A stretch of 64,000 nucleotides of DNA from Octopus vulgaris (GCA_951406725.2 OX597834.1:6510001-6574000); one strand, 5' to 3'; numbered from the stretch's first letter, positions 1,718-53,822 are shown. Notes: a model not told the origin generated them from the letters alone. Made by a program: numbers and translations.

Positions 1718-2010
1718 TACTGGAGTAAACACATAAATGTGAAACAAGGTGGAAAGAAAGAGTACTCAAATACCAGAGGTAGAGTAATATGCTTTAGTTA
1801 AAAGCAGCAGAAATTTAATAAAAGCTGTTACTCGGAGTTTCACGTTCCTGTTCTATTTTAACAAAACTGTCCGACGAACGGGGACGTGAAACTCCGAGTA
1901 ACAGCTTTTGTTAAATTTCTGCTGCTTTTAAATAAAGCATATTACTCTACCTCTGGTACTTGAGTACTCTTTTCTCCACCTTGTTTCACATTTATGTGTT
2001 TACTCCGGTA
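1718..2010 (+). mobile_element. Palindromic Penelope-type pLTR remnant within (TA)n
   Basis: Arms 1718-1853 and 1876-2010 are near-perfect inverted repeats, flanked on both sides by (TA)n. Hammerhead fold at the centre; second copy at 33065-33225. Confidence 0.75.
1857..1915 (+). ncRNA. Minimal type I hammerhead ribozyme-like motif (U4C core)
   Basis: ctgt-CCGACGA-acg(ggga)cgt-GAAA-ctccgag-TA-acag; stem I extends as tttaacaaaa/ttttgttaaa. Confidence 0.7.
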
Positions 2011-2137
2011 TATATATATATATATATATATCAGTGTGTGTGTTTGTCAGTCTCTGTCCCCCATCACTCATGTTGATGTGTTTATATCCCTGTAACTTAG
2101 CGGTGCAGCAAAAGACACCAATAGAATAATTTCTAGG

Positions 2138-2183
<46 letters not shown>

Positions 2184-3559
2184 GCCTTCTTTCAGTTTCC
2201 CTCTACCAAAACCATTCCCAAGGCTTTAGTAAAAAGACACTTGCCCAAGGTACCATTCAGTTGGACTGAACCCAGAACCATGTAGTTGGGAAGCAAACCT
2301 CTTACCACACAGCCATGATACACAAACACACACACACACACACACACACACATAAATATATATACAGAGAGAGAGACAGTTTTTGAAGTGATGTACAGAT
2401 ATTGTATATTTAGAATAATAAGGCAGTCAGAATGCTGGATGATATCTTTTTATTTATTTACATCTTATTTACATTTTAGCACTTTTTTCCTTTATTGGTT
2501 AAATCAAATATTGGTTTAAAGTTAGATTTTTTGGCCTTTTTATATGTAAAGAATTTTGTAGGGTTTGCCAAGCAAGGGAGAAGAAAGAAGAAATTTTTTT
2601 TGAGAAGGAGGGTGGGCAAAGAGGCATGTTTTTTGTAACCTCAGTGATTATTTTTTCTATTAAAACTTGGTGGTTACTCTATCTGTCTCTAATGCCAAAC
2701 CATCAAATTACATGAATGTAAACAAACCAACACCTACTTTTAAGCAGCGGTGGATAACAACCACAGACTCACACACATAAACTTCTTTCGGGTTCTGTCA
2801 ACCAAATTCAAGTCTTTGGTCATTCCAGAGCTATAGTAGAAAATACTTGCGCACAGTGTCATCATTCAGTGGAATTGAACCTTGATTGACATGGCTGGCA
2901 AGCAAACTTCTTGCCACATAGGCCACACTTGTGACCATTAAATAATTCCTTTATTTTTCTCTGATACTTCTTGTATTAATGCACTCAATGCCAGCATCAA
3001 GTTGGTTCACAATGACTTCGGCAAAGTGCATTTCTAATGATTAATAAAACGTTTTTATTGAGCGCCAGACAAAATCCCCTTCAACAAAACTTTCACTTTT
3101 GTGCAAAAATTTTTTGTAAAGAACTACTTCAAAAATATTCTTAGGAATTTTAATAAAATAAACTTATTAAAACTCCTCAAATCTTGTTAAATTTTTATGA
3201 AATTTTATTGAAACAAAACAAAATTCTAAAAAATTAATTCAGTAAGTTTTTCTTTGATAATATTCTCTAAAATATTTTAATATTCTTCCTTTAAAAAACT
3301 CTTTTGTGCAAGTGTGAGGGTTTTGTTTGTGGGAGGGGTTTTATCATGCGGGAGTTTTGTCACCTTCTTTGTTATGATATATAATGCAGGTATGACAGTA
3401 TTCTGTGAAGTAACGTATTTAATTAAGATTTTATTCTGGACTTTGAACCACTTGATAGAGCAGTTTGTTGTTCTGTTAAATGAAGTATCAATGAGTATTT
3501 CTTACTTTTATGTGAGGCAATGTTGAAATAAATCAATAACAATAACAACCATAGGTAGG

Positions 3560-3648
3560 GATTATTATTATTATTATTATTATTGTTATCGTCGTCATCA
3601 TCATCATCATCGTTATTATTATTATTATCATCATTATTATTATTATTG

Positions 3649-3724
<76 letters not shown>

Positions 3725-3777
3725 AATTATTATTATTATTATTGTTATTATCATTATTATTATTATTATTATTTTTA

Positions 3778-3820
<43 letters not shown>

Positions 3821-3990
3821 CATTATTATTATCATAATTATTATTATCATTATTATTATTATTATTATTATCATTATTATTATTATTATTATTATTACTT
3901 TTATCATTATCATTATTATTATTACTATCATCATCATCATTATTAGTATTACTACTGTTATTATTATTGTTGTTACTATTATTATTGTTA
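3560..3990. repeat. (ATT)n/(ATC)n compound microsatellite
   Basis: Seen directly; the poly-N/D/I ORFs over it are artefacts. Confidence 0.95.
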
Positions 3991-4511
3991 AAGTTGCTGG
4001 AAATACTTAAATCAAAAAAACTCATTCAGTTACAAAGATAATTAATTAACTATCCAGGTGCTTAATGCGAAAATCTTCACTCACACACAGAACTGTTTGT
4101 GTGGGCTTACAAAATGTCTGACATATAACTGTATTAAAAAAAATAACTCACACACATATTGAAGCTATTAATTATTTTTTTCCTTTTCTTCAGAATTTAC
4201 TTATTCTTTGCAAACAATGTCTCAGCTACCTATACTGCTTTTTAATTATTAAGATTCGGTTGGCTTTCTATTAGCTTATCCAAGTGGCAGTCACCTGTAT
4301 GCTACCTCACATTGTTTGGAAGTCATTCATTATTTTAAGATGTTGTCCACAGCCTGTTCCAGATGCAAGAAAGACTAACCCAATCTCCACCAACTTTGCA
4401 AGGTTGCAGAAATGTTAATTTTGAAAGAAGCTGCTGTTACAATCGGAGAAAAGTTTGGATGTGTTTCTTTTTTTCCTTTGGGTGTGTTCGACTGGCTATG
4501 GGAATCCACCA

Positions 4512-4843
4512 TAGGAGTGGCTCTGTGGTAAGTAGCTTGCTTACCAACCTCATGGCTCCGGGTTCAGCCCCACTGCATGGTACCTTGGGTGAGCGTCTTC
4601 TGCTATAGCATCGGGCTGACCAAAGCCTTGTGAGTAGATTTGGTAGATGGAAACTGAAAGAAGCCCGTCATATATATATGTGTACTACACACATTTTTTT
4701 CTCTCCTTGTTTTTTTCTGTGTCCCTTTCTGTACAAGAGTGTAGGCTCAAAACGTAAAAAACCTTTACTACTTCTGAGCGTTATACTAATACATCTGTTT
4801 GTTTTGTACACCACCTGTCTTCGTCTTTTGTTTGTTTCATAAA

Positions 4844-4878
<35 letters not shown>

Positions 4879-5103
4879 CGTGTGTGTATATGTTTGTGTG
4901 TCTCTGTTTGTCCCCCCAACATCGCTTGACAACTGATGCTAGTGTGTTTACATCCCTGTAACTTAGCAGTTCAGCAAAAGAGACCGATGGAATAAGTACT
5001 AGGCTTACAAAGAATAAGTCCTGAGGTCAATTTGCTCAACTAAAAGCGATGCTCAAGCATGGCCACAGTCAAATAACTGAAGCAAGTAAAAGAGTAAAAG
5101 AGG
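4512..5103 (+). mobile_element. SINE A with a nested insertion in its TA tract
   Basis: Head 4512-4670, body resumes about 4880-5103. Confidence 0.85.
4680..4850 (+). mobile_element. Short TA-targeting Penelope-type element with a decayed hammerhead (4726-4760)
   Basis: ttt-ctgtaca-a-gagt(gtag)gctc-aaaa-cgta-aaa parallels the better-preserved motif at 33859-33893; related decayed copy at 63765-63915. Confidence 0.5.
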
Positions 5104-5924
5104 GCCCATAGATAAGAAATGGTTGAGAAACCTTGCTCTAAATCAAGAAGATGCAATGTATGTCATTTTCACCAAAGTTTTAATATCCCTCATTTACTTG
5201 ACTTCATTTTTTGCATCATAAATTCCCAAACCATCATAATGTGCAACAGGATATTGGTGAATTAAGTGTGAACTGTCTTGTTTTAGTCTTGTTGTGACAT
5301 CATTAACTTAGCTCAACATCCAAAAATAGGATCAAAAGTCTTTCCCAAGCCTTAGGCTCATAAGGCTGGTTTCTTGGATTCTTTGGTGGTCCTATTCCAC
5401 CTCTGGCTGGGAGACCAGTCCATCATAGATTACTCATTTCTAGCAGCCACATAAAATGAAGTGTTTTGCTCAAGACCCCAAAACATTGCTCACTCCACAA
5501 TCTTATGATTTTAAGTGCATCACCCTAACCACTATGGCATGTGCTTCCACTTCTCCAACACCACTGATGCTCAATCAGGTGTAAACAACATCAAGATTCT
5601 TCTCTTCATAACATTACACGACCACTAAAACATCATCACACACCTGCAGCTGTACTGTAATGGAAAAACCAATTTTGACCAAACATTACAATGTTTTGAT
5701 TTGAATTTGAAATACAGAACAAGACATTTGTTTACAGACATGTCAAGAATTTCTTCAGTTCTTAACATGATAATCAGCTGATGCTGTTTCTTCAATCATG
5801 TTTTTTTGAACAATATAGTCTTAACTGTCGAGAAAATTAAACAGATGATTATTTTCACCAGCTGTCTTGGTAGTTGAACAATCTTTGCCATACATTTATT
5901 AATTTATCAAATTGAATGTATAGA

Positions 5925-6274
5925 CAATTGCAGCATGGAAGGTGTTTGTAAGCGATTTAAGAAACACACAAAAACGTTAGATTCACTTCAACATTTAAGT
6001 TTAATTTGTGAAAATATTTTTGTCGCTTTAAGACCGCGACCTATTCAATGACAAAAATCTGTGCTGCATCTCACGGATTTTTGTCAGCACGGATGCAGCA
6101 CGGATTTTTCTCAGTGAACAGGTCGCGGTCCTAAAGCGACAAAAATATTTTGACAAATTAAACTTAAATGTTGAAGTGAATCGAAACAGCTTACAAACAC
6201 CTTCCACACTGTAATTGTTTTCGTTTCAGCACACGATCTCAGATCAAGTCACTTGCTATGCAAGTACATCTCCG
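5925..6274 (+). mobile_element. Palindromic Penelope-type insertion with TSD
   Basis: Inverted arms about 5925-6070 and 6092-6217, plus an unpaired 3' tail. TSD tgaatgtataga (5913-5924) / tgaatgtacaga (6275-6286). Confidence 0.8.
6107..6157 (+). ncRNA. Hammerhead-like motif with G3:C8 core variant (G12 decayed to A)
   Basis: tca-GTGAACA-g-gtcgc(ggtcctaaa)gcgac-AAAA-atat-TT-tgacaaa; the two-arm consensus stem I is tttgtca/tgacaaa. Confidence 0.55.
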
Positions 6275-7060
6275 TGAATGTACAGAGTTATTCAGTTTAA
6301 CAGCTAAAAGCATATTGTCAATACGACCTTTGCTCTTCTCTCAGTTTGGTTTCTCTTTATATTCTCTCATCTGCTCTCTCACGCATTATCCATTGTACCC
6401 ATGTAACAGCTAATGATGGGTTATATTTTATTACCTGAGCTTTTTGTACACTATCCAAATGGGATTTATATGCCAAATGACGCTTTAAAAACTGAAGTTT
6501 CCAAAACTATTGCTTTTCTTTCCACTGCTAGATTCTCCAGCAAATTACACATCGCCACAAGACAAAAACATAACTTCTATTTCTTACATAAATATTTCCT
6601 ACAGTTGAATGTTTTATGATCTCATAAGTTTTTAGTGTATCAGCTTCAACTATTTTGCAAAGCCATTGCAGTTAGTTCTTTTGTTCTTCATGCTATTTGC
6701 TTCTGAAATCAACATAGTGAATCAGTATGTTTTTCAATAAAAACTCAGCAAGTCATCTACAGAACTTGAAACTGGTCTTTACGACATAAAAGACTATTCG
6801 CCAAATATGGCCACAGCCATTTTATAGCTTGCTGCTGCTGCTGCTGCAGACACTGGAGCAGGAATTATTAATTACAACATTAGTTTAGGTGATTAACCTT
6901 TCTTTTATACACACATTAATTTCTTTTGTGTACTGGTTGCACATACGAACAGCTCAGAGGAAATGTTACAACATGCTAGCAAAAATCTTTCTTATTTCAG
7001 TTGTTACTGACGATTATGAATTCTTAAAATGTGTCGTCATTTTTACAGACAAGTGGACAA

Positions 7061-7480
7061 GGTGCAAGAGTGGCTATGTGGTAAGTAGCTTGTTTACCAA
7101 CCACATGGTTCCGGGTTCAGTCCCACTGCGTAGCACCTTGGGCAAGTGTCTCCTACTATAGCCTTGGGCTGACCAAAGCCTTCTGAGTGGATTTGGTAGG
7201 TGGAAACTGAAAGAAGCCCATCGTATATATGTTTATATATATATTTGTGTGTGTGCTTGTATGTCTGTGTTTGTCCCCCAACCTCCAACATCGCTTGACA
7301 ACTGATACTGGTGTGTTTACCTCCCCATAACTTGGTGGTTCAGCAAAAGAGACTGATAGAATAAGTACTAGACTTACAAAGAATAAGTCCTGGGGTCGAT
7401 TTGCTTGACTAAAGGCAGTGCTCCAGCATGGCCACAGTCAAATGACAGAAACAAGTAAAAGAGAGAAAAGAGAAAGAGAG
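7061..7480 (+). mobile_element. SINE A, full length
   Basis: Head, body and tail match the family. Confidence 0.9.
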
Positions 7481-7539
7481 AAGGGCTGTTGGAGGTTAAG
7501 TGTTACAGCCATGATCACTATGGAGAACAAGTGAACATA

Positions 7540-7943
7540 TAGGCACAGGTATGACTGTGTGGTAAGAAGCTTGCTTCCCAACCACATGGTTCCAAGTTCA
7601 GTCCCATTGCATGGTTCTTTGAGCAAGTGTCTTTTACTATAAGCCTTGGGTTAACCAAAACTTTGTGAGTGGATTTGGTAGATGGAAACTGAAAGAAACC
7701 TGTCATATATATGTATATATATATATCACTTTACACTTTTACACTTTTACTTGTTTCAGTCATTTGACTGCGGCCATGCTGGAGCACCGCCTTTAGTCGA
7801 GCAAATCGACCCAGGGACTTATTCTTTGTAAGCCCAGTACTTATTCTATCGGTCTCTTTTTGCCGAACCGCTAGGTGACGGGGATGTAAACACACCAGCA
7901 TCGGTTGTCATGCAATGCTAGGGGGACAAACACAGACACACAA

Positions 7944-7976
<33 letters not shown>

Positions 7977-8241
7977 CGTCTACCAAATCCACTCACAAGG
8001 CATTGGTCGGCCCGGGGCTATAGCAGAAGACACTTGCCCAAGATGCCACGCAGTGGGACTGAACCCGGAACCATGTGGTTGGTTAGCAAGCTACTTACCA
8101 CACAGCCACTCCTGCGCCTATATATATATATATGTATAGTATATGTATGTGTGTGTATATGTTTGTGTGTCTGTGTTTGTCCCCTGCAACATCGCTTGAC
8201 AACCGATGCTGGTGTGTTTACATCCCCATAACTTAGCGGTT
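7540..8241. mobile_element. SINE A (+) interrupted in its microsatellite by a younger SINE A (-, 7730-8118)
   Basis: Plus head 7540-7710, minus full copy 7730-8118, plus body resumes 8150-8241. Confidence 0.85.
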
Positions 8242-9009: not shown

Positions 9010-10385
9010 GTGACCAAAACCTTTGGAAATATGCTGTGCTTGAGAAGACTCGGCAAGCACAAGTGAGACCATAACCTTGTGGCCTATGCCAGGGGTGTAA
9101 CCAGCCCGCTTATGCGTACCTTTCGTTCATTGGACACTAAACTCTTCCAATGAAGACTTGTTGAGGTAAGTGAAATCGAAATCGAAATCAAATTTGATGA
9201 CTGGCATCCGTGCTAGTGGTAGTGGTGATGTAGTAGTAGTAGTGGTGGTGGTGGTGGTGGTGGTGGTTGTAGTGGTTGTGGTTGCGGTGGTGGTGGTGGT
9301 GGTGGTGGTGATAATGGTAGTGGTGATGTAGTAGTAGTAACAGTGGTGGTGGTAGTGGTGGTGGTGGTGGTGGTAGTAGTAGTAGTAGTGGTGATGGTGG
9401 TGGTGGTGGTGGTGTTGGTGGTAGTAGTGGTGGTAGTGGTGGTAGTTGGGGTGATGGTGGTGATGATGTTAGTGGTGATGTAGTAGTTGTAATAGTAGTA
9501 GTAGTAGTAGAAGTAGTGGTGGTTGTGGTGGTGGTGGTGGTGGTGATGATGGTAGTGGTGATGTAGTAGTAGTAGTAGTAGTGGTGGTGGTGGTGGTGGT
9601 GGTTGTAGTGGTTGTGGTTGCGGTGGTGGTGGTGGTGGTGATAATGGTAGTGGTGATGTAGTAGTAGTAACAGTGGTGGTGGTAGTGGTGGTAGTGGTGG
9701 TGGTAGTAGTAGTATTAGTGGTGATGGTGGTGGTGGTGGTGGTGTTGGTGGTAGTAGTGGTGGTAGTGGTGGTAGTTGGGGGTGATGGTGGTGATGATGT
9801 TAGTGGTGATGTAGTAGTTGTAATAGTAGTAGTAGTAGTAGAAGTAGTGGTGGTTGTGGTGGTTGTGGTGGTGGTGGTGGTGGTGATGATGGTAGTGGTG
9901 ATGTAGTAGTAGTAGTAGTAGTGGTGGTGGTGGTGGTGGTGGTGGCGGCGACGGTATAACCTAATGAGTACTATAGGGGTGGGATTGTGGCCAGAGCAAC
10001 AAGCTGGCCTCTGTGCTGATGGTATGTTAAAAACACCATTCGAGCGTGATCGTTACCTGCGTCACATCATTAGCACTTGTGTTGGTGGCACATTCGAGCG
10101 AGGTAGTTGCCAGTGCCGCTGGACTGGCTCCTGTGCAGGTGGCACATAAAAAGCACCATTTGAGCGTGGCTGTTGCCAGTACTGCCTGACTGGCCCTCAT
10201 GCCGGTGGCACGTAAAAGCACCCACTACACTCTCGGAGTGGTTGGCGTTAGGAAGGGTATCGAGCTGTAGAAACTCTGCCAGATCAGATTGGAGTCTGGT
10301 GCAGCGATCTGGTTCGCAAGACCGCAGTCAAATCGTCCAACTCATGCTAGCATGGAAAGTGGACGTTAAACGATGATGATGATGA
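9010..10385 (+). mobile_element. RTE-type LINE 3' end (family C): ORF terminus, repetitive 3' UTR and (GAT)n tail, split by a triplet array
   Basis: DQNLWKYAVLEKTRQ at about 9012-9057 resembles an RTE ORF end. The UTR has repeated ggtggcacNtaaaagcacc units and ttggcgttaggaagggYatc, then the tail gatgatgat. Confidence 0.65.
9214..9966 (+). repeat. (GGT/AGT/GAT)n array with an internal higher-order duplication; left arm of an inverted duplication
   Basis: Diagnostic blocks such as gttggggtgatggtggtgatgatgttagtgg occur twice (about 9445 and 9776); ends in the unique tag ggcggcgacggtataacctaatg. Confidence 0.9.
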
Positions 10386-11113: not shown

Positions 11114-11270
11114 CATTAGGTTATACCGTCGCCGCCACCGCCACCACCACCACAACCACCACTACTACTACATCACCACTACCATCATCACCACCACCAC
11201 CACCACCACTACTACTACATCACCACTACCATCATCACCACCACCACCACCACCACAACCACCACTACTT

Positions 11271-11306
<36 letters not shown>

Positions 11307-11670
11307 TTACAACTACTACATCAACACTACCATCATCACCACCATCACCACAACTACCACCACCACCACCACTACTACCACCACCACCACCACCACCACT
11401 ACTACTACCACCACCACCACCACCACCACTACCACCACCACTACCACTACTACTACTACTACATCACCTATACCATTATCACCACCACCACCACCACAAC
11501 CACAGCCACACCACCACCACTACTACTACCACCACCACCACCACCACCACCACCGCTACCACCACCACCACCACTACTACTACTGCATCATCACCACCAT
11601 CACCACAACCGTCATCGCCATCATCATCATCATCGCCACCACCACTGCATCCGCTACCATCACCACCATT
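11114..11670 (-). repeat. Right arm of the inverted duplication of the 9.2-9.97 kb triplet array
   Basis: cattaggttataccgtcgccgcc is the exact reverse complement of 9944-9966, and the diagnostic interruptions also match. Confidence 0.9.
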
Positions 11671-14499: not shown

Positions 14500-15720
14500 C
14501 AAATTTCTTGTTGTTGTTGTCCATCAAGTTCAGAACACAAGATATGTTGAGATATTTATTCGATACATCCTTACATGTATTTCATGAATATAAAATCCAT
14601 TAAGTAAGGGTTTTCTAAGAACATGATTACATCATCAAATCATCAGAGTTTGTAAAACAAATGGAATATTAGTCTTAAGAAAATATTAGTCTTAAGAAAA
14701 TTCATATTAGATAATTATGCTGTTTCTGTAAAATTTAGATTTTGTTGTAAATATAACCTGAAGATTTATTTAAATAGGCTTATTGCTAGTATAAGAGACT
14801 ATTTAATACTATAATAAGTATATTTTTACACACAAAAAATTAATATTGTTAGTATTTTTGGAAGAATGCATCTGGTTTTTAAAATTAAAAGAGGTAGCAA
14901 TTATGGTAGAATGACGTATCATAAAAAATGCTCTAGCTGATAGAAAACAGATGTGTGACTTACTATATACACTAGAAGACCTCAAAATATTAAAAAGAAA
15001 TAGAAAGAATGATATTCTAGTTCTGTGCAGCCATAAAAGTTTAAGAGTTAAGTACTAACAGCAAAAAAATTCTAGTTACATATAGTATAAAATAAACTCA
15101 TAATAAAAACATTAAGTATTTTTGAACAAAGTTTTAAATAGTCAAACAAGCACTTTTAATGCCTTTGAGAATGCTATTTTCATATATCAACAATTTCCCA
15201 ATATCCACAGAAGGCACCATGTTGGAATTTCCGTTTCTTATATCTGTGTACTGCTATGGCTGTGTTAAATATGTGAGGCCGCTGGAGTGTATTAGCTTAA
15301 TTTAAGAAGTATATATGTCTATCTATGTTTGTGGATGTGTGTGTGTTTGTATGTATGTCTGTATGTGGATGTATACACATGCATATATGTTTCTATACAT
15401 TAGCTATGTTTAAGTAGATATATGTTTCTATATATATATGTGTGTGTGTGTATGAATATGTACTTGTATGTATGAATGAACAGTTAAATCAAAAGATATT
15501 AAAGCGAAGACCCTGAAGAAAGTGGACTGGTGTTATAGGAGGGTTGCAATTGCAACGATTACTAATCAATGCAATAGAAACACGTGTAGGTCTATTTGAA
15601 GCTCTCTCTCTCTATATATATATATAAAATATTTTAAAATCTGTTGTCTATTGACTATTTATACATGCTAGGCCACTGGTGGTGATATTTATTATGAATA
15701 TTTGCTACCCTATAGATGTA
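14500..15720 (+). mobile_element. Decayed Penelope-like retroelement (RT and GIY-YIG remnants, pLTR)
   Basis: Peptide remnants DYIIKSSEFVKQM (about 14625) and NAFENAIFIYQQFPNIHRRHHVGIS (about 15158-15232, like the GIY-YIG C-terminal LE..I....P.LN..G), with a hammerhead downstream. Confidence 0.5.
15508..15593 (+). ncRNA. Type I hammerhead ribozyme motif, long stem II
   Basis: agacc-CTGAAGA-(57 nt)-GAAA-c(acgt)g-TA-ggtct: perfect 5-bp stem I, palindromic stem III, GUA triplet; stem II is decayed. Confidence 0.75.
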
Positions 15721-16419: not shown

Positions 16420-16740
16420 GAACCTTTCTTGGAATTGTTTGGCAGACACCATGGAGCTTTAATTCACCAACAGACTATGATAGGATAGGATTAACCCTAG
16501 AAGCAGGAACCCTATTTATTTAAATTGATGACCTTAATCAAGACAAAATCCAAATTCCGCAGAAGCAGTGTCATTAACTGCCAACTGTGAATTATCTTCA
16601 ACTGCGAATATTTCATTTATTGCACAAACTCTGATGATTTGGTAATGTAAGAGGATTATAAGATAATCCTTACATAATGGATATAGTTATTAACGAAATA
16701 CATATAAGGAAAAACCTGTCCCCTCTCTTTCTTTTTCTCT
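16420..16740 (+). mobile_element. Decayed Penelope-like 3' end with a hammerhead at 16629-16708
   Basis: LTLEAGTLFI*IDDLNQD (GIY-YIG tail-like), then ct-CTGATGA-t-ttggtaa...ttattaa-c-GAAA-t(acat)a-TA-ag with inner hairpin atgtaag/cttacat. Confidence 0.6.
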
Positions 16741-21800: not shown

Positions 21801-22504
21801 TACGACAGGCTTCTTTCAGTTTCCGTCTACTAAATCCACTCACAAGGCTTTGGTCGGCCTGAGGCTATAGTAGAAGACACTTGCCCAAGGTGCCATGCAG
21901 TGGGACTGAATCCGGAACCATGTGGTTCGTAAGCAAGCTACTTACCACACAGCCACTCCTACGCCTAGTCACTCCTATGAACCAGTCACTTTCACTGAAT
22001 GTTTTCCCTCAAATTCTTCAAACTTTCACAATAGAACTCTCGATTGATGGCCTGGCCCCTGGGGGATGAATTATCGATGCACAGTACCACATTTCTGGTG
22101 GTAATGCTTGTGACAGGTCTTTCAGATACCTCATCATCTTCCAGGGACGTTTTTCCATTTTTGAAGTGCTTGTGCCATTTGAAACATTGCGTATGACACA
22201 TTGCCTCAACACCGTAAGCTTGTCAAAGCGTGCTCAATGTCTCTGTAGCCGACTTACCAAGTTTAACGCAAAATTTCACGTTGGTTCTTTGTTCCAACTT
22301 CCTGTCCATGACAAAAATCGCAGACTACAGCATACTCGTGATCGCAAAAACACTAGTTTCACAACTTGTGAAGTAAACACAGTGACATCACTCAACACAC
22401 TGCCTCAGGAATATCACATTTACCTCTCACAGTGCATGCAATCATGTGCTGCCATCTGTTGGCGTGCTACAGAACTACTCTGGGAACTTTTTGATACCAC
22501 CTCA
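21116..22504 (-). mobile_element. Mariner (Tc1/mariner) transposon, internally deleted, interrupted by SINE A (21517-21966)
   Basis: TIRs taaggtggtatcaaaaggttcc / ggaactttttgataccacctca with TA flanks. Transposase pieces TQCFKWHKHFKNGKTSLEDDEVSERPVTS, PRGQAINREFYCESLKNLRE and QGDYFKD. Confidence 0.9.
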
Positions 22505-23188
22505 TATATATATGCGGTTAATATTCTGTTATGTCGAATTGCATGAATCTTCTTTATATTAAGCTCTGGATTATCGTGGAATACAATTTCTTTCAGCTAA
22601 CCTTACTACATTTTTAATTTCGAGACGAATAGAGTTGAGTAATTTTTTGTGTAATTAAACCCATATAAAGTTTATTCATAGATATTTGATGTGTTGTCAG
22701 AAGTCAACTTTATGAACACTAGGAGAAATATAAAGAGATTACCTGACAAAGCAATCTAAGCTGTCTTCTAGTTTTAGTTATTGTGCATCCTCCTTTATAA
22801 AGTTGTAGGTCTTGAGGCATAATTTCTTGTATGCTTTATTCAATGTTGACTGACAGGAGCTTGTTGCATGTCACCAAGTCTGTATCGCATATATTTTTAA
22901 TAAATGGTGAAAACATGAGTATTAGGTGATTGTTCAAAGTGTTCAATACCAATTCAATTACCAGAAGATAATTGAACAGAAGATTACTTAAAAGGCACAA
23001 ATTTAATTTAAGCTATAGTTTTAATACTAATATGAAAAATTCATACACTATATATATATATATATAATTATACACATAAGGAATCTACACCTAGGGCGAA
23101 GATTCAGCGCATTAGAGAGCCACAAAAATAATGGATAAGATTCGACAGGAACAAAAATTTGAAAATCAAAAATATTTACCATTTATTA

Positions 23189-23267
23189 CCCCGGACCAAT
23201 ATTGGTTTCTGATCTTCTTTTAGCGAGTCATAGGAACTCACAAGGTCTGATCTTCTTCAATGAGGGC
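23189..23267 (-). ncRNA. Decayed hammerhead motif in a TA-flanked element (23070-23420)
   Basis: Minus strand: ccctca-TTGAAGA-a-gatc...gatc-a-GAAA-cc(aatatt)gg-TC-cgggg; C3 mutated to T, palindromic stem III, GUC triplet. Confidence 0.6.
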
Positions 23268-23443
23268 CAACCTGGGGTTAAAACATGTAAGACAGAAGAC
23301 AGGGAACCGCTATCTGCCTGCTGACTACATGAAGTAACTTTTCAAAATTTCTCTGCGCAATCGCAGTCCTATCGACAGCCAAAACAAACCGCCGATTTTA
23401 ACCGAAAGTCATCCAAAAATATACATATATATATATATATATA

Positions 23444-25460: not shown

Positions 25461-26199
25461 TTATATATTTCGTTTTTGGATTTGGTTTGCAAGATTCTTT
25501 ATATGAGTTCGTGTGTTGAAGCATATTCTGTTGTGTCTGGGGAGAGTCATTTTCTTTTTGTGCCTTATAATGTAACACACTCACCGGTAAAATTTCCACT
25601 TATTTTTTATTTCTCAAGATAGTCAAGACTATGGAAAAGGTTTGCAAGGGACAACAAAAATTTTAGGAAAATAAAATAAGAAAGAAGTGGAAATTTTACC
25701 GGTGAGTGTCTTATAAATAATAAGGCACAAAATATAATAATGTTAGGTATATTTGCCATCTCAATATGGCTAACCACTAAGGGTGGGTGTTACTGTAGCT
25801 TTTAGCCCCAGGAGAACATCTCCTCCAGCTGGCTTTAGGCACACTTTCTGTGCTCTTTCGGTATTTGCAAAGGGAGGTCATCCTTGCAAATATCCCCCCA
25901 ACCTACGTTTGCAAATACCGAAAGGGCACAGAAAGTGTGCCTAAAGCCAGCTGGAGGAGATGTTCTCCTGGGGCTACAAGCTACAGTAACACCCACCCTT
26001 AGTGGTTAGCCATATTGAGATGGCAAATATACCTTACATTGTCGTGCAGTTACTGTTTATACCTCGTACACAGATTTATTATTGCTTATAATAATGTTAT
26101 AATAGTCTTATAATAGTGTTATAATATAGTGTTATAATATAATAGTGTTATAAAATAAGGCACAAAAAGAAAATGACTCTCCCCAGACACAACAGAATC
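25461..26199. mobile_element. Palindromic Penelope-type element (same family as 53350-53822), interrupted by a second hairpin element
   Basis: 25520-25612 is the reverse complement of 25668-25732 plus 26155-26199; decayed U3:A8-type hammerhead at 25629-25666. Confidence 0.7.
25739..26090. repeat. About 300-bp hairpin element with an unpaired 3' tail, in an (ATA)n tract
   Basis: Arms about 25739-25871 and 25908-26040 with about 3 mismatches. Confidence 0.88.
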
Positions 26200-31833: not shown

Positions 31834-33064
31834 ATATATACATATATATATATACATATATATATACATAAATCCATATATATATATACATGTATATATG
31901 TATACATATATACATGTATATATATACATATATACATATATATATAAATATGCATACGTACATACATACATATATATACATACATATATAAATATACATA
32001 CATACGTATACATATATACATATATACATAAACACAAATACAGTTAAATGCATGCATACATATATGTATATTTAACTATTTATATGCATATATCTACAAA
32101 TATATTTTCATACAAATATAGCTATATATATATCTATATATATATATACATTTATGATATACAAGAATAAATTCAGCATATATATATAAATGAGTATGTG
32201 TGTGTGTGTATACATTTATTATCATTATTTAATATCTATATTTTCTGTAGTAGAAGCCTTCCCAGCTACCAATCTGCACATGATGTGAAAATGAATATAC
32301 ACACAAATATACACATGTGTAAATGTATACACACACACACACATATAATATGCAAAATTTATATATATAAATAATATCATATAGTTTCTTTTGAAACTGA
32401 GTGTGTTGCTTATGACTTGAGTTTCATGCCACTGCAATCTTCTGGCCAGGATTTCTTGCCTGAACATTGTTGTGGTGCAGAGTTCTAGTTGCAAGACAAG
32501 CTTTTAGTTTAAGTCTTAATAAAATAAACAAAACTTATCTTCTGCAAAATATATGGAGCACATCTCTGTCATTCACTGAACATAAACTTATATATATATA
32601 TATACATATAAATATATAGATATATATACAAACAAATATATATATATATAATGAAGATAAAAGAGAAGACAGAATGTACCAACAAAAGAATTTTCATATT
32701 GTTACAAGAATTATTTCATCTTGAAGATGCCCTGCTCCCTCATGGGCGTGGAATGATGCAATAACACCAGATGGAAAGCACAGTGCATAGAAGACTCCTC
32801 ATGTAAGACACTAAGGTTTGAAACAGGGACATTTACATTTCAGTTTCGCTGTATTGAGAGATTTTAACAGTTAGACAGACTTGCAGACATTCTTATGTTT
32901 GAATCGTTACAAAGACATACAGATGCCCACATTAACAACCTGAGATAAGGTTTCAATACAGTTTTTAACATATATTTTCTTAACCTTAATTCTTTAACCT
33001 TATATTTGACTTATATATATATATGTGTGCATATTATATGTATAATATATATATATATATATAC

Positions 33065-33221
33065 TTTAAAAGCAGCAGCAATTCAACAAAACCTGTTACT
33101 CAGAGTAACTCCAAGTAACAGGTTTTGTTGAATTTCTGCTGCTTTTAAATAAAGCATATTACTCTACCCCTGGTATTTGAGTACTCTGTTTTCAACCTTG
33201 TTTCACATTTATGTTTACTCT

Positions 33222-33225
<4 letters not shown>
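33065..33225 (+). mobile_element. Second, shorter palindromic copy of the 1718-2010 family in (TA)n
   Basis: Same arm sequence; the inversion junction lies in the stem III palindrome (actcagagt/actccaagt). Confidence 0.85.
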
Positions 33226-33273: not shown

Positions 33274-33396
33274 CAGCAAAATTTAGATTCAAATGAATAT
33301 GGTACTTAAGTTAGATGCACCAGAATTTTGTATGGTGTTATCCTTTTTAATCCATGGGGTGATTATAATCAAGATAAGCAACAAGAATAACTTCGG

Positions 33397-33488
33397 TAAT
33401 TTGGTACAATCGTTTCACGCTACATCATTTTATTAAATATTGTAAGTATTACAACAGTTTTAGAATGTTGAGCAATCATCAGCCATTA
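33397..33488 (-). ncRNA. Type I hammerhead motif (inverted copy)
   Basis: Minus strand: tgg-CTGATGA-ttgctcaacatt...aatgatgtagcgt-GAAA-c(gatt)g-TA-cca. Confidence 0.75.
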
Positions 33489-33624
33489 ATAGAGGTTTCC
33501 CATTAATACATAATTTTCATATCAATTGATAACATTATAGAGAAGGCAGATATATAGACAAAGATGTCGATTTAAATTTTAAGAACATTCAGGTAGTAGA
33601 GTTTAGCAACTGACTGAAGAATAT

Positions 33625-33716
33625 TAATGGCTGATGATTGCTCAACATTTTAAAACTGTTGTAATACTTACAATATTTAATAAAATGATGTAGTGTGAAA
33701 CGATCGTACCAAATTA
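33625..33716 (+). ncRNA. Type I hammerhead motif, intact core, long stem II
   Basis: tgg-CTGATGA-ttgctcaacatttta...taaaatgatgtagtgt-GAAA-c(gatc)g-TA-cca. Confidence 0.8.
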
Positions 33717-33858
33717 CCGAAGTTATTCTTGTTGCTTATTTTTGATATATATATATATAGTTAATCCAAACGTGAAAACTCAAAGAGAAAACACAACGCG
33801 AGGACGTGGAACAAGTATAGCATTATTGGACACTCAGGAAACGAAGGAAAGAAGGAGG

Positions 33859-33893
33859 ATTCAATGTTTCAAGCGGAGCTCTTCATCAGAAAC
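33859..33893 (-). ncRNA. Ultra-minimal hammerhead motif in a TA-flanked element (33760-33965)
   Basis: Minus strand: ttt-CTGATGA-a-gagc(tcc)gctt-GAAA-ca-TT-gaa; the gctt and acat variants fit CpG decay of gctcGAAAcgtt. Confidence 0.65.
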
Positions 33894-34099
33894 ATAGAAA
33901 AAGGAAAGATCCACGTATGGGAAGACGGAAGGAAAGAATCGCCAACTATACACACGCGGTCATATATTGAATGACTGGAAGAGAATGGGTGAAGAAAAAG
34001 TTCTTTCAAAGACAGGAGAGTGCAAGAGAAGGAGGTATGTGTGTGTATGTGTGGGTATGTGCATGTGGGCAGGTCTGTGTGTGTGTAATGATAGCAAGT

Positions 34100-46536: not shown

Positions 46537-46538
<2 letters not shown>

Positions 46539-47282
46539 TCATCATCATCATCATCATCGTTTAACGTCCATTTTCCATGCTAGCATGCATTGGACGGTTC
46601 GACGGGGGTCTGGGAAGCCAGGAGGCTGCACCAGGCTCCAGTCTAATCTGGCAGTGTTTTTACAGCTGGATGCCCTTCCTAACGCCAACCACTCCACTGT
46701 ATCCATTTAATGGATATATATATATATATCATCACCATCATCATCATCATCGTTTAGCGTCTGCTTTCCATGCTGGCATGGGTTGGACGGTGTAACTGGG
46801 GTCTGGGAAGCCTGAAGGCTGCACCAGGCCCAGTCTGATCTGGCAATGTTTCTACGGCTGGATGCCCTTCCTAATGCCAAGCACTCCATGAGTGTAGTGG
46901 GTGCATATATATTTGTTTTGCAAAATTCTTGATGTGAAATCGTGTGTTGAAACAGATGTTGTTGTATTTAGGAATGGTCATTTTGCCAGTTTAGCCAATA
47001 AAAACACACGCACTATATATTTGGTGTTAATTTGCTTCAGCTTTATTTTATTTTTTACATTAATCTTAATCTTATTTCAGCCAGGTTTGGCAGAGTTTCT
47101 ACAGCTGGATGCCCTTCCTAATGCCAACCACTCCGAGAGTGTAGTGGGTGCTTTTTACATGCCACCAGCACAAGGGCCAGTCCAGCGGCACTGGCAACGA
47201 CCTCACTTGAATGTTGTTTTTCATGTGCCAGTAAGGTGATGCTGGTAACGATCACACTCGAATGGTGCTTTTTATATGCCAT
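46537..47282 (-). mobile_element. Cluster of three family C fragments
   Basis: 46537-46700, 46729-46903 and 47080-47282. Confidence 0.8.
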
Positions 47283-47800: not shown

Positions 47801-47877
47801 CCATCGTTGCTTTCTACGCCTTTTTTCTTTTTTTCTTCATATTCGTTTCCTACACATTTTTTTTTTTACATCCATTG

Positions 47878-48296: not shown

Positions 48297-48299
48297 TGC

Positions 48300-49284
48300 A
48301 CTATTTTTTCTTTTATTTTGTTTCTAGATAATATTGTAAACATTAGCCAAATTTTGAACAACAAAAATTAAATGTCACAAGGAAGCATCAGGATTTTAGA
48401 AATGATTCAGTGGGGCATGGCCAAAAGTCAGCTGGGAACCGTTGCTTTACACACAGGCCTTTTGCAAAGTGAACACATATATGAGGTCTCGCCCTGATAT
48501 CCTTTTGCTGTTTTTCTTTTTGGCAACGAACACAAGTCTGTAAACTTTTTTCCTTCCATTTATTTTTCCAACCTTATGGAAGTCAACTTTTTTCTCAGTC
48601 AATTTTCCTTTTCTCACATAGTGGATCGAGTGTCCCACGAATAGAAATCATACATTGAACATATTTATTTCCTCCGTGACAGTTTCAAAAAAAACTTTTC
48701 AGTAAAAATAAAAATTAAATAGTCCAATGGTTGAGCATCGAAGGGTAAATTTTTATTGTGGACTAGTCTTTTCTGTGGAATCAGGAATTGTGGTTGATGT
48801 AGTAATCTTCAACCATGATGCTGTAATGTTTTCAATACTATTTTCATCACTTTCGTTTTTATCACTTTCATCATCAAAATCTTCCTTGTCCAACAAAGAT
48901 TCATAAATACCGATATCAGATTCGTCCGAAGATAAATCACTGTTGTTTACGTTCATATTTTGCTCATCATCAAGAGTAAAATCTTCAAAGTCAGAATCGC
49001 TGCTTGCTGATGCCATGTTGTTAAAAACTAAGATGTACACTTCTCTTCAAACATTGAAAAACCAAAAAGTCTAAAAAAATTTCATGTTATTTTTACTTGA
49101 ATAAAGGCAGGAAAGGCTTTATCTCCCATTATCTCAAAGCTACAAGAATTCAGTCACATGATTTGTTTATTTTTATAGCAATTTTGTCGAGGAACCAGAT
49201 ACAGCCAGATCTGGCTGGTTCAAGCAAATAAAGGAAAATTTATTTTCGGTCAGTTTTTGGCTGGTCTGAACAGTAAGGGGTCAA
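48300..49284 (-). mobile_element. Internally deleted piggyBac-type transposon
   Basis: Acidic N-terminus MASASSDSDFEDF, then PFDAQPLDYFNFYF..ETVTEEINKY, joined to the Cys-rich tail TCVRCQK...ETSYMCSLCKRPVC. The end at 49284 reads ttga-cccctt (TTAA-CCC-like); the second TIR was not found. Confidence 0.75.
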
Positions 49285-49477
49285 GATGTTTGATCAAACC
49301 CTTGTCATCAAGGAAAAAGCAGGCACAGGAACTAAATTATAGTGGTGGTGGCAGTGTTGGTGGGAGTGGTGGTGGTGGTGGTGGTGGTGATGATGGCAGT
49401 GATTGTTGAGGAGGCAGCAGTGGCCATGGAAACGGTCAGTGTAGGGTATGATATAAATAAATAAATAAATAAATAAA

Positions 49478-49975
49478 TGCACCCTTTTAAATGCTAGCCA
49501 GGCTCATGGGCCCAGTTTCCCGGTTTCTATGGCATATGTGTTCCCCAGCTGGACGGGACACCAGTCCATCGCAGCGTTACTAATTTTTGCCAGCTGAGTG
49601 AACTGGGGCAATGTGAAATGAAGTGTTTTGCTCAAGAACACAACGCATTGCCGGACCAGGAATTGAAACCACAATCTTACTATCACGATGCTGACACCCT
49701 AACCACTAAGCCACATGCCTCCACAAATGCGCCCTTTTAAAGCCTAGCCAGGATCATAGGCCCAGTTTCCCGGTTTCTATGGCGTATGTGTTCCCCAGCT
49801 GGACGGGACACCAGTCCATCGCAGCGTTACTCATTTTTGCCAGCTGAGTGGACTGGAGCAACAGGAAATGAAGTGTTTTGCTCAAGAACACAATGTGTCA
49901 CCCGGTCCAGGAATTGAAACCACAATCTTACTATCATGGTGCTGACACCCTAACCACTAAGCCACGCACCTCCAC
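49478..49975 (-). mobile_element. SINE family E, head-to-tail dimer (about 250-bp units)
   Basis: tRNA head gtggcttagtggttagggtg..ggtttcaattcc, V-domain-like tgcgatggactggtgtcccgtccag and (ATTT)n tail; decayed copy at 5345-5550. Confidence 0.85.
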
Positions 49976-50567
49976 AGGGTATGATATACTGAGATTATAG
50001 AGGGTATGTCTTGTGGAGCAATTTTTGACTCTATCACGAATGTATCTGTTTCTTTGTAAACATTAGGGTGTGATTCGAAGAAATTTGGCTGTGGCTTCTA
50101 GCAAGTGTCAGTGACTGTATAGCATTTCTCTGTCTCTGCATAGCATTTCTCTGTCTCTCTCTCTTTGGCTTGTGAAGTAATCATGTTTATGCTGGAGGAT
50201 GCAGAAGCAAAAGAACAGTTGCCAAGCGTAAAGACAGTAAATGAAAATTTCTGCAAACTTCTTCTTTCTCACACACAAAGATATTTGTCACTTCAAGCAA
50301 TATACACAGATTATGAAAGTTATTGAAGACGTGTGATGCTGCTTCTTAATTAGATATTGGTATTAACTACAGAAGATTTGTGAAAGCCAGAGGGAAATAA
50401 GGTGGGTACTTACCCTAAAAGCATAAGTACAATAAATTAGAACCACAATAACTTCAATGAGGAAATGAAACTTTTGGTATTTTCTTCTAAAGTTATGGTG
50501 TATACATTAGTAATAATGATGATGATTATGATGGTGATGATGATGATGATGTTCCTTTGTGTTATAG

Positions 50568-50772
50568 TGTTGGAAACCTTAATGCTGGATTGTTATAATG
50601 CCCACTTTGGTATAGCAGTATAGTTGTTCGACCAGTAAAGACACGACTGTCTAAGAACGTCTACTTCATACTCTCTCTCTATACTCACTGACATCACCTT
50701 ATTTATAGTGACTAGCACATACCACTTGTCACGTGGGAGGGAAGTACCATTATTACTATTATCCCTGCAACA
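50568..50772 (-). mobile_element. 3' LTR (205 bp) of a Gypsy element
   Basis: TGTTG...CAACA ends, minus-strand TATAAATA, and polypurine tract aaaaggggg immediately upstream on the minus strand. Confidence 0.75.
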
Positions 50773-50883
50773 TACCCCCTTTTAAGTTTTTCTTTTTTTT
50801 CTTAGGGGGGTGTAATTTTATTTCTTTTAATAACAATAATTTTATTTCACCCCACTTCTCATTTTTGAATTTTTTTTACTTAA

Positions 50884-51760
50884 TTATACATTTAATATTT
50901 TTTTCCGTTCGCCATCCACTTTCAGGAACTCTGTACATTTTCTTTTTTTTACACTTGTGTGCCTGGGTTTAATCACCTGTGGTGGCGTTGGTACTTGAAA
51001 AGTATCATATAACCGTTTCATTGGTTCTTCCATTCTCTTGGGTTCACTCTCCACAAATTCTTTTTTCAGTTGGTTCATATGTCTCTTGTATATCCCTGCT
51101 CTACTCTTTACCAAGTATAGTATTTTTCCTATGCATTTGGTAATCATGCCATCTTCCCGACTCTGTTCTCCATTCTTATATGCCCTCACAAATACCTTTG
51201 CACCAATTTTGGAAAATCTCGCTGTACTTTCCATTGCAATTTTTTTCTTCTTGCCAGGTGTCAAAGATTGATTTTACCTTCTTTGCAAACATCAGCTCCA
51301 CTGGTGACATACCTGCTGATGTATTTGGATTTAGTGTCAAACGGTATACTCTTAAGAATTGCTGTAGAGCTACCTCACCAGTGACTTCCTTCTTCAACTT
51401 TCTTAGGGATCTCTCGAACATATCGACAAAGCGTTCTGCCTGTCCATTAGATCTGGGATAATATGGCTCCATAGTTACATGATCTGTCATGAACCCTTTT
51501 ACAAAACTTTTTAAATTCAAAAGACACAAATTGAGTTCCATTGTCAGACACTATTGTGTCTGGGATGCCAAATCTTGCAAACAGCTCATGTAAAAAATGT
51601 CACAGTTGAGGAGGTTGGCTTTTTAGCACTTACAAATTTCTGACCATTTAGAGAAACTATCAACTACCACTAAGTAGTATGAACAATTTAATGGATCAGT
51701 GAATTCAATGTGTTGTCTCAACCACAGAACATCTACTTTTGGCCAAGGTTCACTTTTTAT
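50884..51760 (-). pseudogene. Ty3/Gypsy integrase, frameshifted
   Basis: [47 protein letters not shown] and SPVELMF. Confidence 0.92.
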
Positions 51761-51818
51761 GAAATGCTGCTAAGTAAGCATTTTGCCTAGCATGCTAACA
51801 ATTATACCATCTCACAAC

Positions 51819-51864
<46 letters not shown>

Positions 51865-51995
51865 CAGTCAATAATAATTCTTTCTACTGTAGGCACAAGG
51901 CCTGAAATTTTGTGGAGAGGAAACTAGTCAATTTTATTGACCCCAGTATTTCACTGGTACTTGATTTATTGACCCTGAAAGTACAAAAGGCAAAT

Positions 51996-52044
<49 letters not shown>

Positions 52045-52266
52045 CCATCACCATCATCATCATCATTGTTGTTGTTGTTATTGTTACTATTAATGATAAT
52101 ATGTCTTGGCTAAATAGCAATATGGATGGTTTCTAAGAAGTTCTCTCCACAAAACAAACTTATTCCAAATAACATTGGTGCAATGGAAGGAAAACTTTGC
52201 GATATGGGGAAAAGTCCTGTTAAAGCCAAGGAACTAGAAAATTGGAAAGATTTTTGTTACATACAG

Positions 52267-52362
52267 TGTAGTTTATTTCTTAAATGCGTGATATCTCAAT
52301 GTGACATGTGCAAGACATTGAAGCCAGCACCAGGAACACTGGAAAGACACTCTAATTACATG
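52267..52362 (+). other. Candidate 96-nt exon
   Basis: ttttgttacatacAG acceptor, perfect ATG/GTAAGT donor and open frame CSLFLKCVISQCDMCKTLKPAPGTLERHSNYM; no recognised homology. Confidence 0.25.
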
Positions 52363-52613
52363 GTAAGTACGTTAATTGAATAATTACTTTTACATGCAAC
52401 TGTCCATGCATCCATGTGCACATGCTAATGTTTAGAAGCAACATAAATAATGCCTGCGCGATACACATGGAGAAAATAAAAGGAAACCATGTGTTACAAG
52501 CAATGAAGTACCAAGCAAAAACAAAGTGACTTCCCACGAATGAATATAAAAAGGAGCGAATTAGTCATTAAGTATAAAGCATATCCTTACATACAAACAT
52601 GGTACATAGTTGC

Positions 52614-52653
<40 letters not shown>

Positions 52654-52729
52654 TGCACACACAAGGAGACAGAGGTGCATACATATACAAACACATGCTC
52701 AAACATACATACATAGAAAATACACAAAC

Positions 52730-53135
52730 AGGCGCAGGGGTGGCTGTGTGGTAAGTAGCTCGCTTACCAACCACATGGTTCCAGGTTCAGTCCCACTGCA
52801 TGGCACCTTGGGCAAGTGTCTTCTGCTATAGCCTCGGGCCGATCAAAGCCTTGTGAGTGGATTTGGTAGACGGAAACTGAAAGAAGCCCATCATATATAT
52901 GTATATATATCTATGTGAGTATGTATATGTTTGTGTGTCTGTGTTTGTCCCCCCAACATTGCTTGACAACCGATGCTGGTGTGTTTATGTCCCCGTAAAT
53001 TAGCGGTTCAGCAAAAGACTCCAATAGAATAAGTACTGGGATTACATAAGAATAAGTCCTGGGGTCGATTTGCTCGACTAAAGGTGGTGCTCCAGCATGG
53101 CCGCAGTCAAATGACTGAAACAAGTAAAAGAGTAA
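52730..53135 (+). mobile_element. SINE A, full length
   Basis: Family homology. Confidence 0.92.
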
Positions 53136-53349
53136 ACACGGACATGCAAGCACATAAATATGCAGGATACGTACGTACAGATGCACACTCATACATACAT
53201 ATATACATATGCATACACACACTTATATACATACATACGCATGCAAATACACACATACATACATACGTACATGCATGCATGTATAGGCACACACACACAC
53301 TGACCCACACACATGCGCACAAACAAACAAAAGGGAACACAGTGTAAAT

Positions 53350-53822
53350 AACGGACAGAGTCAAGACTATTGAAAAGGTTGCAACATCATCATCATCATC
53401 ATCATCGTTTAGCGTCCGTTTTCCATGCTAGCATGGGTTCTACTGGGGTCTGTGAAGCCAGAAGGCTTCATCAGGCCCAGTCAAATCTGGCAGTGTTTCT
53501 ACGGCTGGATGCCCTTCCTAACGCCAACCACTCCGTGAGTGTAGTGGGTGCTTTTTACGTGCCACCCGCACTGGTGCCAGACAGAGCTGGCAAACGGCCA
53601 CGAACGGATGGTGCTTTTTATGTGCCACCGGCACGAGGGCCAGGCGATGCAACGAAAATTTTAGGGAAATGAAAATAAGAAATAAGTGGAAATTTTACCG
53701 GTGAGTGTGTTACATTCTAAGGCACAAAAAGAAAATGACCCTCCCCAGACACAACAAAATATGCTTCAACACACGAACTCATATAAAGAATCTTGCTAAC
53801 CAAATCCAAAAACGAAATATAA
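53350..53822 (+). mobile_element. Penelope-type element whose U3:A8 hammerhead is split by a family C insertion (53385-53645)
   Basis: cta-TTGAAAA-g-gttgc-aa[insert]gat-gcaac-GAAA-at-TT-tag; downstream sequence matches 25461-26199. Confidence 0.72.

Follow-up and report, generated by a model that had tools for sequence, protein, structure and literature searches.

Several short repeats in a 64,000-nucleotide stretch of the Octopus vulgaris genome (OX597834.1:6510001-6574000, labelled G000:C21:6510001-6574000 here; the whole stretch is called the window) carry the parts of a hammerhead ribozyme, and in some of them the tertiary pair between core positions 3 and 8 differs from the canonical C:G. 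A first-pass annotation described these repeats as Penelope-type mini-elements and the altered pairs as compensatory change. The locus raises the question of whether the variant pairs are states of whole families, maintained by selection, or damage in single copies. The answer that we moderately favor is that the repeats are copies of the terminal repeats of Penelope-like elements, in which the 3-8 pair has been exchanged among C:G, U:A and G:C, probably under long-term selection for a slow predicted self-cleavage. We refer to the families by letters, given here with the window position of the core: A (6114), B (53370), C (1871), D (23260), E (33631/33482), F (33889) and G (15513), plus the 16631 element, while H is a third family, related to A and B, that was met in the flanks of other copies. 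L-numbers (for example L247) denote genome copies or loci outside the window, and genome-wide match counts refer to one 2.8-Gb assembly, that of this genome.

The relationship between positions 3 and 8 was assessed with a descriptor that was blind to the pair, placing no constraint on positions 3, 7 and 8 (score cut-off ≥8), in 800 kb made up of 80 stretches, evenly spaced or adjacent, that were picked regardless of the motif. The 27 matches comprised 20 C:G, 5 U:A, 1 G:C and 1 A.G, compared with a mean of 1.6 matches, none of them Watson–Crick, over 5 dinucleotide shuffles. By this control the motif order is far above chance, and the 26 Watson–Crick pairs among the 27 matches agree with the first-pass claim that the two positions co-vary. 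When only clusters met at two or more places are counted (11 single-place matches were omitted), 17 of the 23 multi-copy clusters have C:G, 5 have U:A and 1 has G:C, and in none is a mismatch the majority state. The probability that random pairing of these 17/5/1 states would leave all of them Watson–Crick is nominally ~1.7e-6, a significance that is overstated since the clusters are not independent. Positions G5, A6, A9, G12-A15.1, U16.1 and H17 are kept in the family majorities alongside the pair, a conservation that is partly built into the descriptor. The exceptions to a paired 3-8 are a G3.G8 sub-lineage of family A and two U3.G8 copies of family D.

The G:C state belongs to family A. A 24-letter pattern of this family in which positions 3 and 8 are N finds 3,358 exact matches in the genome compared to 0 for the reversed control, and GTGAACA (G3:C8) was read in 96 of the first 100 matches listed, all of which lie on contig C1. 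Arms picked on downstream sequence only gave the same core in 13 of the 15 that could be parsed, the other 10 of 25 being truncated or too diverged, and G12 is intact (GAAA) in 26 of the 27 readable copies from 30 unbiased loci. No other letter reaches 8% at position 3 or 8 in contigs from four public runs under four organism codes (RNA or DNA), and the G3:C8 state spans at least 10 flanking haplotypes. The family A fold has stem I UUUGUCA/UGACAAA (7 bp), an extra G and stem II GUCGC/GCGAC (5 bp), followed by GAAA, the palindrome AAUAUU and U17. Family B, whose arms were collected with a query without the core and tallied where stem I is readable, is U3:A8 in 30 of 32 arms, 29 of these reading TTGAAAA, and has a 3-bp stem I, stem II GUUGC/GCAAC (5 bp) and the palindrome AAUU. 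These tallies identify the variant cores as family states, as the first-pass annotation had supposed, and not decay. Both families also show two features that it described, an additional G following A9 and a UUU triplet, the latter located at the cut site.

Families A and B are homologous, with 46% identity over the linker and endonuclease at the protein level, and the corresponding value for A and H is 48%. The three have in common the extra G, a stem II pattern with paired changes (GUCAC/GUGAC in H) and similar N-terminal peptides after the motif. H has C3:G8, and the three pair states G:C, U:A and C:G thus occur in homologous elements. The homology of A and B makes their 3-8 covariation more meaningful, and it corrects the first-pass count of at least eight unrelated elements: there are eight families, derived from nine cores because those at 33631 and 33482 belong to the arms of a single insertion, and at least two of the families are related. 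That homologous families differ by paired swaps at a tertiary base pair is, at the sequence level, strong evidence for selection on the active fold. In family H, 2 of 4 core-bearing places read CTGATGC (A9C), and helix III is non-palindromic (L087 1780-1800 on the minus strand, L218, L309, L198).

A further exchange is found in family D, which holds C3:G8 and U3:A8 subfamilies and has an extra base before G12. Its 27 genome matches include 19 C3:G8, 5 U3:A8 (four insertions), 2 U3.G8, one of them the window copy, and 1 C3.A8. The copies with U3:A8 or U3.G8 rank with the nearest relatives of the window copy, at mostly 94-98% identity, and the swap therefore took place inside one family. The U.G wobble expected by theory on the route from C:G to U:A is present in this family, although the order of events is inferred. 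Since U3.G8 recurs, in 2 of the 27 matches, the earlier description of the 23260 core as plain decay does not hold. Taken together, at least three separate double changes are likely to have occurred, namely to G:C in family A, to U:A in family B and to U:A within family D. Additional U3:A8 motifs exist elsewhere: one in L012 (2960-3010, plus strand) reads TTGAAAA, with a 2-bp stem II and the palindrome CCGG, behind a different GIY-YIG open reading frame (ORF), and more U3:A8 hammerhead families, most with A at position 7, lie in the flanks of L152, L323, L329, L093, L099 and L134.

Walking upstream through longer copies leads to broken ORFs ~0.9-2 kb before the motif, and both variant motifs (A and B) sit 3' of Neptune-like reverse transcriptase (RT)/GIY-YIG remnants. 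Broken RT-thumb-linker-GIY-YIG runs were found upstream of the motif in L247, L248 and L251 for family A and in L209/L253 for family B. In L247 the RT motifs QTKGGAIG and YVDD, a thumb, a CQNDCAVC linker and GIY-YIG lie between two hammerhead motifs. Pfam detects GIY-YIG with E = 8e-6 in family A and 2e-5 in family B. Atlas look-alikes of the RT piece carry PF26215 or PF00078 in some clusters, and a PDB search with this piece gave nothing significant. The linkers conform to CX2-5CxxC (CQNNCAVC in A, CTNDNCMVC in B and CTDNYCTVC in H), by which A, B and H appear to be Neptune-like members of the Penelope-like elements, a placement that comes from the linker motif and not from a tree with reference elements. 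Family G also has longer genome copies with a GIY-YIG remnant ~200 bases upstream (E from 1e-6 to 1e-12), of a type different from that of A, B and H, whereas the ORF link of family E is a single, weak match (E = 2e-7) and none was found for C, D, F or the 16631 element in the loci examined. The Penelope assignment is therefore borne out for the families of 6114, 53370 and 15513 and weak for 33631. Rather than forming a mini-element class of their own, the elements correspond to short terminal-repeat copies from ordinary Penelope-like families.

The remaining families differ in how closely they follow the canonical motif. The cores of E, G and the 16631 element, and that of B by way of the variant, agree with the published core (CUGANGA or its U3-A8 variant), which the GUGAACA core of family A does not; E and G have canonical cores, and a separate tally of G was discarded because many of its anchors were false. 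Family C has C3:G8, C at position 4 as the commonest state (20 of 28 arms), no extra base after position 9, A10.1-U11.1, and a stem III, CUC-C-GAG, that is a palindrome with one central unpaired base. Family F has C3:G8 in all 16 copies examined and CCGACGA as its commonest core, and C, D and F commonly carry C4. The helix III palindromes are ACGAUCGU in E, ACGU in F, ACAYGUGU in G and ACCAAUAUUGGU in young copies of D, and imperfect in C. The U4C change, which reportedly slows cleavage, predominates in several of the multi-copy families and often creates a CpG (the 1871, 23260 and 33889 families; L264, L124, L099, L058).

The corresponding features of the window are as follows.

1718..1853, minus strand: family C, inverted arm, truncated within stem II, core absent.
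1851..2008, plus strand: family C, direct arm; core CCGACGA 1871-1877 (C3:G8, C4), GAAA 1888-1891, stem III CUC-C-GAG, UA 1899-1900.
5924..6068, minus strand: family A, inverted arm of the same insertion as 6114; decayed core TTGAATA 6048-6042, position 12 likewise A; terminates at the first 3' end, the one without the tail.
6092..6275, plus strand: direct arm of family A; core GTGAACA at 6114-6120 followed by the extra G (6121), stem II strands 6122-6126 and 6136-6140, A at position 12 (6141; G in the family), palindrome AATATT at 6144-6149, cut predicted after 6150, 3' strand of stem I at 6151-6157; the optional ~58-base tail is present at the end.
15480..15604, plus strand: family G; canonical core CTGAAGA 15513-15519, long loop II, GAAA 15577-15580, palindrome CACGTG, UA.
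16596..16715, plus strand: 16631 element; canonical core CTGATGA 16631-16637, GAAA 16695-16698.
23047..23420, minus strand: family D; core TTGAAGA 23260-23254 with U3.G8 wobble, one extra unpaired base before G12, palindrome ACCAATATTGGT.
25581..25704, plus strand: family B, second copy (new relative to the first-pass annotation); decayed, with a short inverted arm.
33059..33222, no strand assigned: family C fold-back pair (likewise new), joined at helix III, no core.
33364..33502, minus strand: family E, inverted arm; canonical core CTGATGA 33482-33476.
33622..33746, plus strand: family E, direct arm; canonical core 33631-33637, GAAA 33697-33700, palindrome CGATCG.
33795..33915, minus strand: family F; core CTGATGA at 33889-33883; the minimal helix III (ACGU) is decayed here.
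46965..47083, minus strand: family H fragment, no core; homology starts at the predicted cut site.
52585..53830, plus strand: family B; microsatellite-rich 3' untranslated region remnant from ~52585, interrupted at 52731-53136 by a repeat resembling a short interspersed element (SINE); core TTGAAAA 53370-53376, extra G, stem II strands 53378-53382 and 53649-53653, GAAA 53654-53657 and palindrome AATT; the cut is predicted after 53661, and the ORF likely starts at ATG 53735.

All nine core heptamers listed by the first-pass annotation were found, eight at the exact base and the ninth, the minus-strand core given as 33481, starting at 33482, and the order of stem I, core, stem II, GAAA, palindrome, UH and stem I is confirmed at the family level. 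Several window copies are damaged. In the 6114 copy A replaces G12 in both arms (AAAA) and one stem I pair is broken, and in the 53370 copy loop II is split by a ~260-base insertion (53386-53645); the family state of A and B was therefore judged on other genome copies. The 16631 copy has a weak stem I of only 2 bp, and a 78% relative of this element, with core CTGATGA and palindrome TACATGTA, lies at 14568-14670 on the minus strand. A first, strict descriptor, later replaced, recovered 0 of the 9 cores in the window because the copies are damaged and its loop rules were too tight. An Rfam scan of the window is uninformative: microsatellites account for most of the best 150 of 250 rows, and no hammerhead is listed in those 150.

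The ends of the short copies bear on how they arose. In a tally of 74 family A arms, selected for having the core, 40 stop within TCAGATG, at 20-23 bases upstream of the core, whereas 3 continue into the long form. A 3' splice acceptor at CAG|ATG could set this boundary; many copies keep G or AG there, which fits a transcription start better, and splicing is the weaker explanation. Transcription would thus start ~22-23 bases upstream of the core, at the initiator-like TCAGAT. Poseidon of Anolis carolinensis (PAc) is reverse transcribed from two internal sites on uncut RNA (Frangieh et al. 2024, PMC11167929), and we infer the same for family A, where the enzyme would start from two internal positions a little way into the ORF, copying uncut RNA to its 5' end. 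The product would be copies of 150-200 bases, often as head-to-head pairs in (TA)n. Family A copies have head-to-head arms, often (TA)n flanks, and two 3' ends ~58 bases apart. In tandem or read-through transcripts, two motifs may pair via the palindromic helix III, probably aided by the element's protein, and would then cut after U17 and trim the precursor. Such slow self-cleavage is probably kept by long-term selection and yet is unnecessary for each single insertion. Under this scheme U:A would arise readily through the U.G wobble seen in family D, while the route to G:C would have to pass through a mismatch, in keeping with how rare this state is (1 of 23 clusters).

Copies that start at the cut site were considered as a possible fossil of cleavage. 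In family H, 3 of 9 copies start within 2 bases of the cut; these are too few, and one is a case of microhomology. The idea that such starts trace a cleaved RNA template was rejected when the genome-wide count for family A gave no peak, and ungapped end-mapping of family B was dropped since it was distorted by homopolymer shifts. The window fragment at 46965-47083 (minus strand) likewise starts within 2 bases of the cut, and L022, L201 and L215 are H fragments that start within 2 bases of it.

The G3.G8 sub-lineage of family A, which reads GTGAAGA, has 196 genome matches, and 24 of the first 100 listed lie within the first 6.7 Mb of contig C16. In endonuclease-region trees of copies from this genome only (23 rows; copies without a readable core omitted), neither G3.G8 nor G3:C8 forms a clade (approximately unbiased p values, p-AU, of 0.029 and 0.007), and the order of the two states is not settled by the trees. 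Haplotype nesting favors G3.G8 as a later reversion rather than the ancestral state, with 14 of 16 G8 arms sharing one haplotype and C8 spread over 10. The notion of a captured intermediate was dropped, as the trees are indecisive and the nesting points to reversion. Long ORF-bearing A copies and the G3.G8 sub-lineage cluster on C16 (L246, L247, L249, L250, L263-L265, L374-L402), which accounted for 18 of 30 loci in one sample, with independent flanks. The clustering could reflect either re-insertion nearby or unusual retention of repeats on this chromosome.

Several results weigh against selection for cleavage. The G3.G8 copies differ in flanks and 3' ends and some bear ORFs, although theirs is the same single mutant state (C3G alone) that abolished cleavage in PAc (PMC11167929). 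No compensatory stem changes were found among 9 aligned copies of family A. Of 7,812 matches of a family A downstream anchor, 102 start at the cut site (non-T at 17), compared with 181 and 86 at the neighboring positions. The active dimer is not the lowest-energy state in any of the five families modelled (-27.0 versus -32.0 kcal/mol for A and -8.6 versus -21.3 kcal/mol for B) by nearest-neighbor models, which ignore tertiary contacts and protein help, and in the family A monomer fold G3 pairs with U17. Cleavage of PAc is dispensable for insertion in vitro (PMC11167929), and the in vitro activity of minimal Penelope hammerheads is low (Cervera and De la Pena 2014, PMC4209133). With regard to the parent elements, Pfam recognized nothing in the RT piece of L247, and none of the longer copies contains an intact full-length ORF.

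These points have to be set against three other explanations. Post-insertion decay, or chance matches to a loose motif, would account for the damage in the window's own A and B copies, but is refuted by the family-wide states, the shuffle control and the position of the motifs 3' of GIY-YIG ORFs, and we give it almost no credence. It is also conceivable that the fold is kept as a structure, a leader element for protein binding, folding or template selection, in which the 3-8 pair serves the fold and not cutting. In its favor, inserted copies appear to derive from uncut RNA, PAc cleavage needs protein and is dispensable for insertion, no RNA ends were seen at the PAc cut site (PMC11167929), and there are A9C in 2 of 4 family H copies, the extra base before G12 in D and the common C4. 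We nevertheless consider a purely structural role unlikely, as the other core positions listed above are conserved together with the pair (in part by construction of the descriptor), the pair belongs to the conformation that is active in catalysis (PMC8495972), and catalytic mutants left PAc insertion unchanged, so that an essential structure is also disfavored (PMC11167929).

The third explanation is that G3:C8 is a relic: drift or weak selection would have fixed it in a single master element, its cutting would now be too slow to have any effect, and family A would spread regardless. A single G:C cluster in 23 implies that the change arose once, transposition continued in the G3.G8 sub-lineage, activity is only partly restored by engineered G3:C8 (PMC11167929, PMC8495972), and G3 can mispair with U17. 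Two exactly complementary transversions would nevertheless be required, the remaining core and both stems are intact in most unbiased copies, and the state spans the 10 or more flanking haplotypes and the runs under four organism codes mentioned above; a relic seems to us quite improbable. Selection on the pair is a fair long-term inference, weakened by the spread of G3.G8 and the lack of a cut-site excess: the covariation across families largely bears out the compensatory change proposed at first, and a sub-lineage that kept inserting with an unpaired 3-8 weakens it. That the G3:C8 hammerhead of family A evolved naturally, is active and has multiplied to thousands of copies in an animal genome is a narrower and more doubtful proposition that we put forward tentatively. 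If it holds, A, B, H, the U3.G8 copies of D and the G3.G8 copies would form a natural series of compensatory routes at a catalytic tertiary pair, and Penelope hammerheads would be selected for cleavage in the long term while remaining dispensable for short-term spread.

The window contains other repeats and is also microsatellite-rich. Two-part SINE-like repeats with internal (TA)n are very abundant (610-1030, 4500-5105, 7065-7470, 7730-8120, 52731-53136 and elsewhere) and are often nested in or beside Penelope fragments. A long (GTG/GTA)n tract and its inverted counterpart (9220-9960 and 11120-11670) form a large imperfect inverted repeat around SINE-like copies. Decayed RT and endonuclease fragments of a retrotransposon without long terminal repeats (non-LTR) lie at 54344-54755 and 56234-56627 (plus strand), and a 158-residue open frame at 22069-22543 (plus strand) resembles, by eye, a mariner-type transposase remnant.

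The U3:A8 part of these findings and the general anatomy are already known. Penelope-associated dimeric hammerhead variants with a short stem III were, to judge by its title, the subject of a 2017 paper by Lunse, Weinberg and Breaker, in which G3-C8 motifs may already be aligned. Minimal type I hammerheads in Penelope terminal repeats (min-HHRs), with a palindromic helix III, an extra base after A9 and low dimeric activity, were described together with ~1,300 U3-A8 motifs in Schistosoma (PMC4209133), and the U3-A8 state was therefore not new when the first-pass annotation proposed it. The min-HHRs resemble the families reported here in type I order, in the extra base between 9 and 10.1 with G10.1-C11.1 (present in A and B), and in occurring mostly as single truncated copies and opposite-strand pairs; they include the U3-A8 variant of S. 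mansoni Cercyon, and S. mansoni(4) of Figure S3 in that paper has the same UUGAAAA core as family B. They differ in that the alignment rows shown in Figure S3 include no G3-C8 core, the consensus extra base is H compared to G in A, B and H, and C4 is the majority state in several of our families. Natural covariation from C3-G8 to U3-A8 and a natural viroid U4C variant have also been reported (Perreault et al. 2011, PMC3088659), for mostly bacterial and phage motifs with tertiary contacts, and the parts of that paper covered contain no natural G3-C8.

The Neptune clade is characterized by an RT, a CX2-5CxxC linker and GIY-YIG at the C terminus (Craig et al. 2021, PMC8557442), and shares with A, B and H the inverted truncated copy, the optional tail and microsatellite targeting; the tail here (~58 bases) is longer than the 30-40 bases usually quoted. 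The function of hammerheads in Penelope-like elements was called unclear by these authors, whose searches used cuganga strings and relaxed descriptors, with no G3-C8 reported in the parts covered. A non-LTR retrozyme (10.64898/2026.07.22.740005) consists of tandem repeats with a hammerhead per unit, in contrast to the dispersed singles and inverted pairs with an ORF-bearing parent described here, where direct repeats are rare (e.g., L005, L041). A literature search for natural G3-C8 yielded only engineered cases (PMC11167929, PMC8495972, PMC3884650), with the Lunse 2017 alignments, Repbase/Dfam and subscription papers outside its range, and a term search within PMC10085705, PMC11014351, PMC6155905 and PMC6765202 gave none. 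The first-pass view that canonical searches miss a radiation holds for the G3:C8 family, the only one to escape both published descriptors (C3-G8 and U3-A8), and not for U3-A8, for which descriptors exist. Since a family with at least 3,358 copies escapes both, hammerhead censuses undercount.

The closest parallel is PAc, which resembles family A in having the motif in a terminal repeat beside the ORF start, two 3' ends (tail), AT-rich targets and, presumably for family A, uncut RNA as the insertion template. In PAc, C3G alone abolishes cleavage and C3G/G8C partly rescues it (PMC11167929). There G3:C8 is an engineered mutant, whereas here it is the natural state of a Neptune-like family with thousands of copies and a natural G3.G8 sub-lineage. 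The part that may be new is the occurrence of G3:C8 as the natural state of a very abundant family among homologues with three pair states and both unpaired forms, and its G3.G8 sub-lineage offers a ready comparison for testing selection on the active fold.

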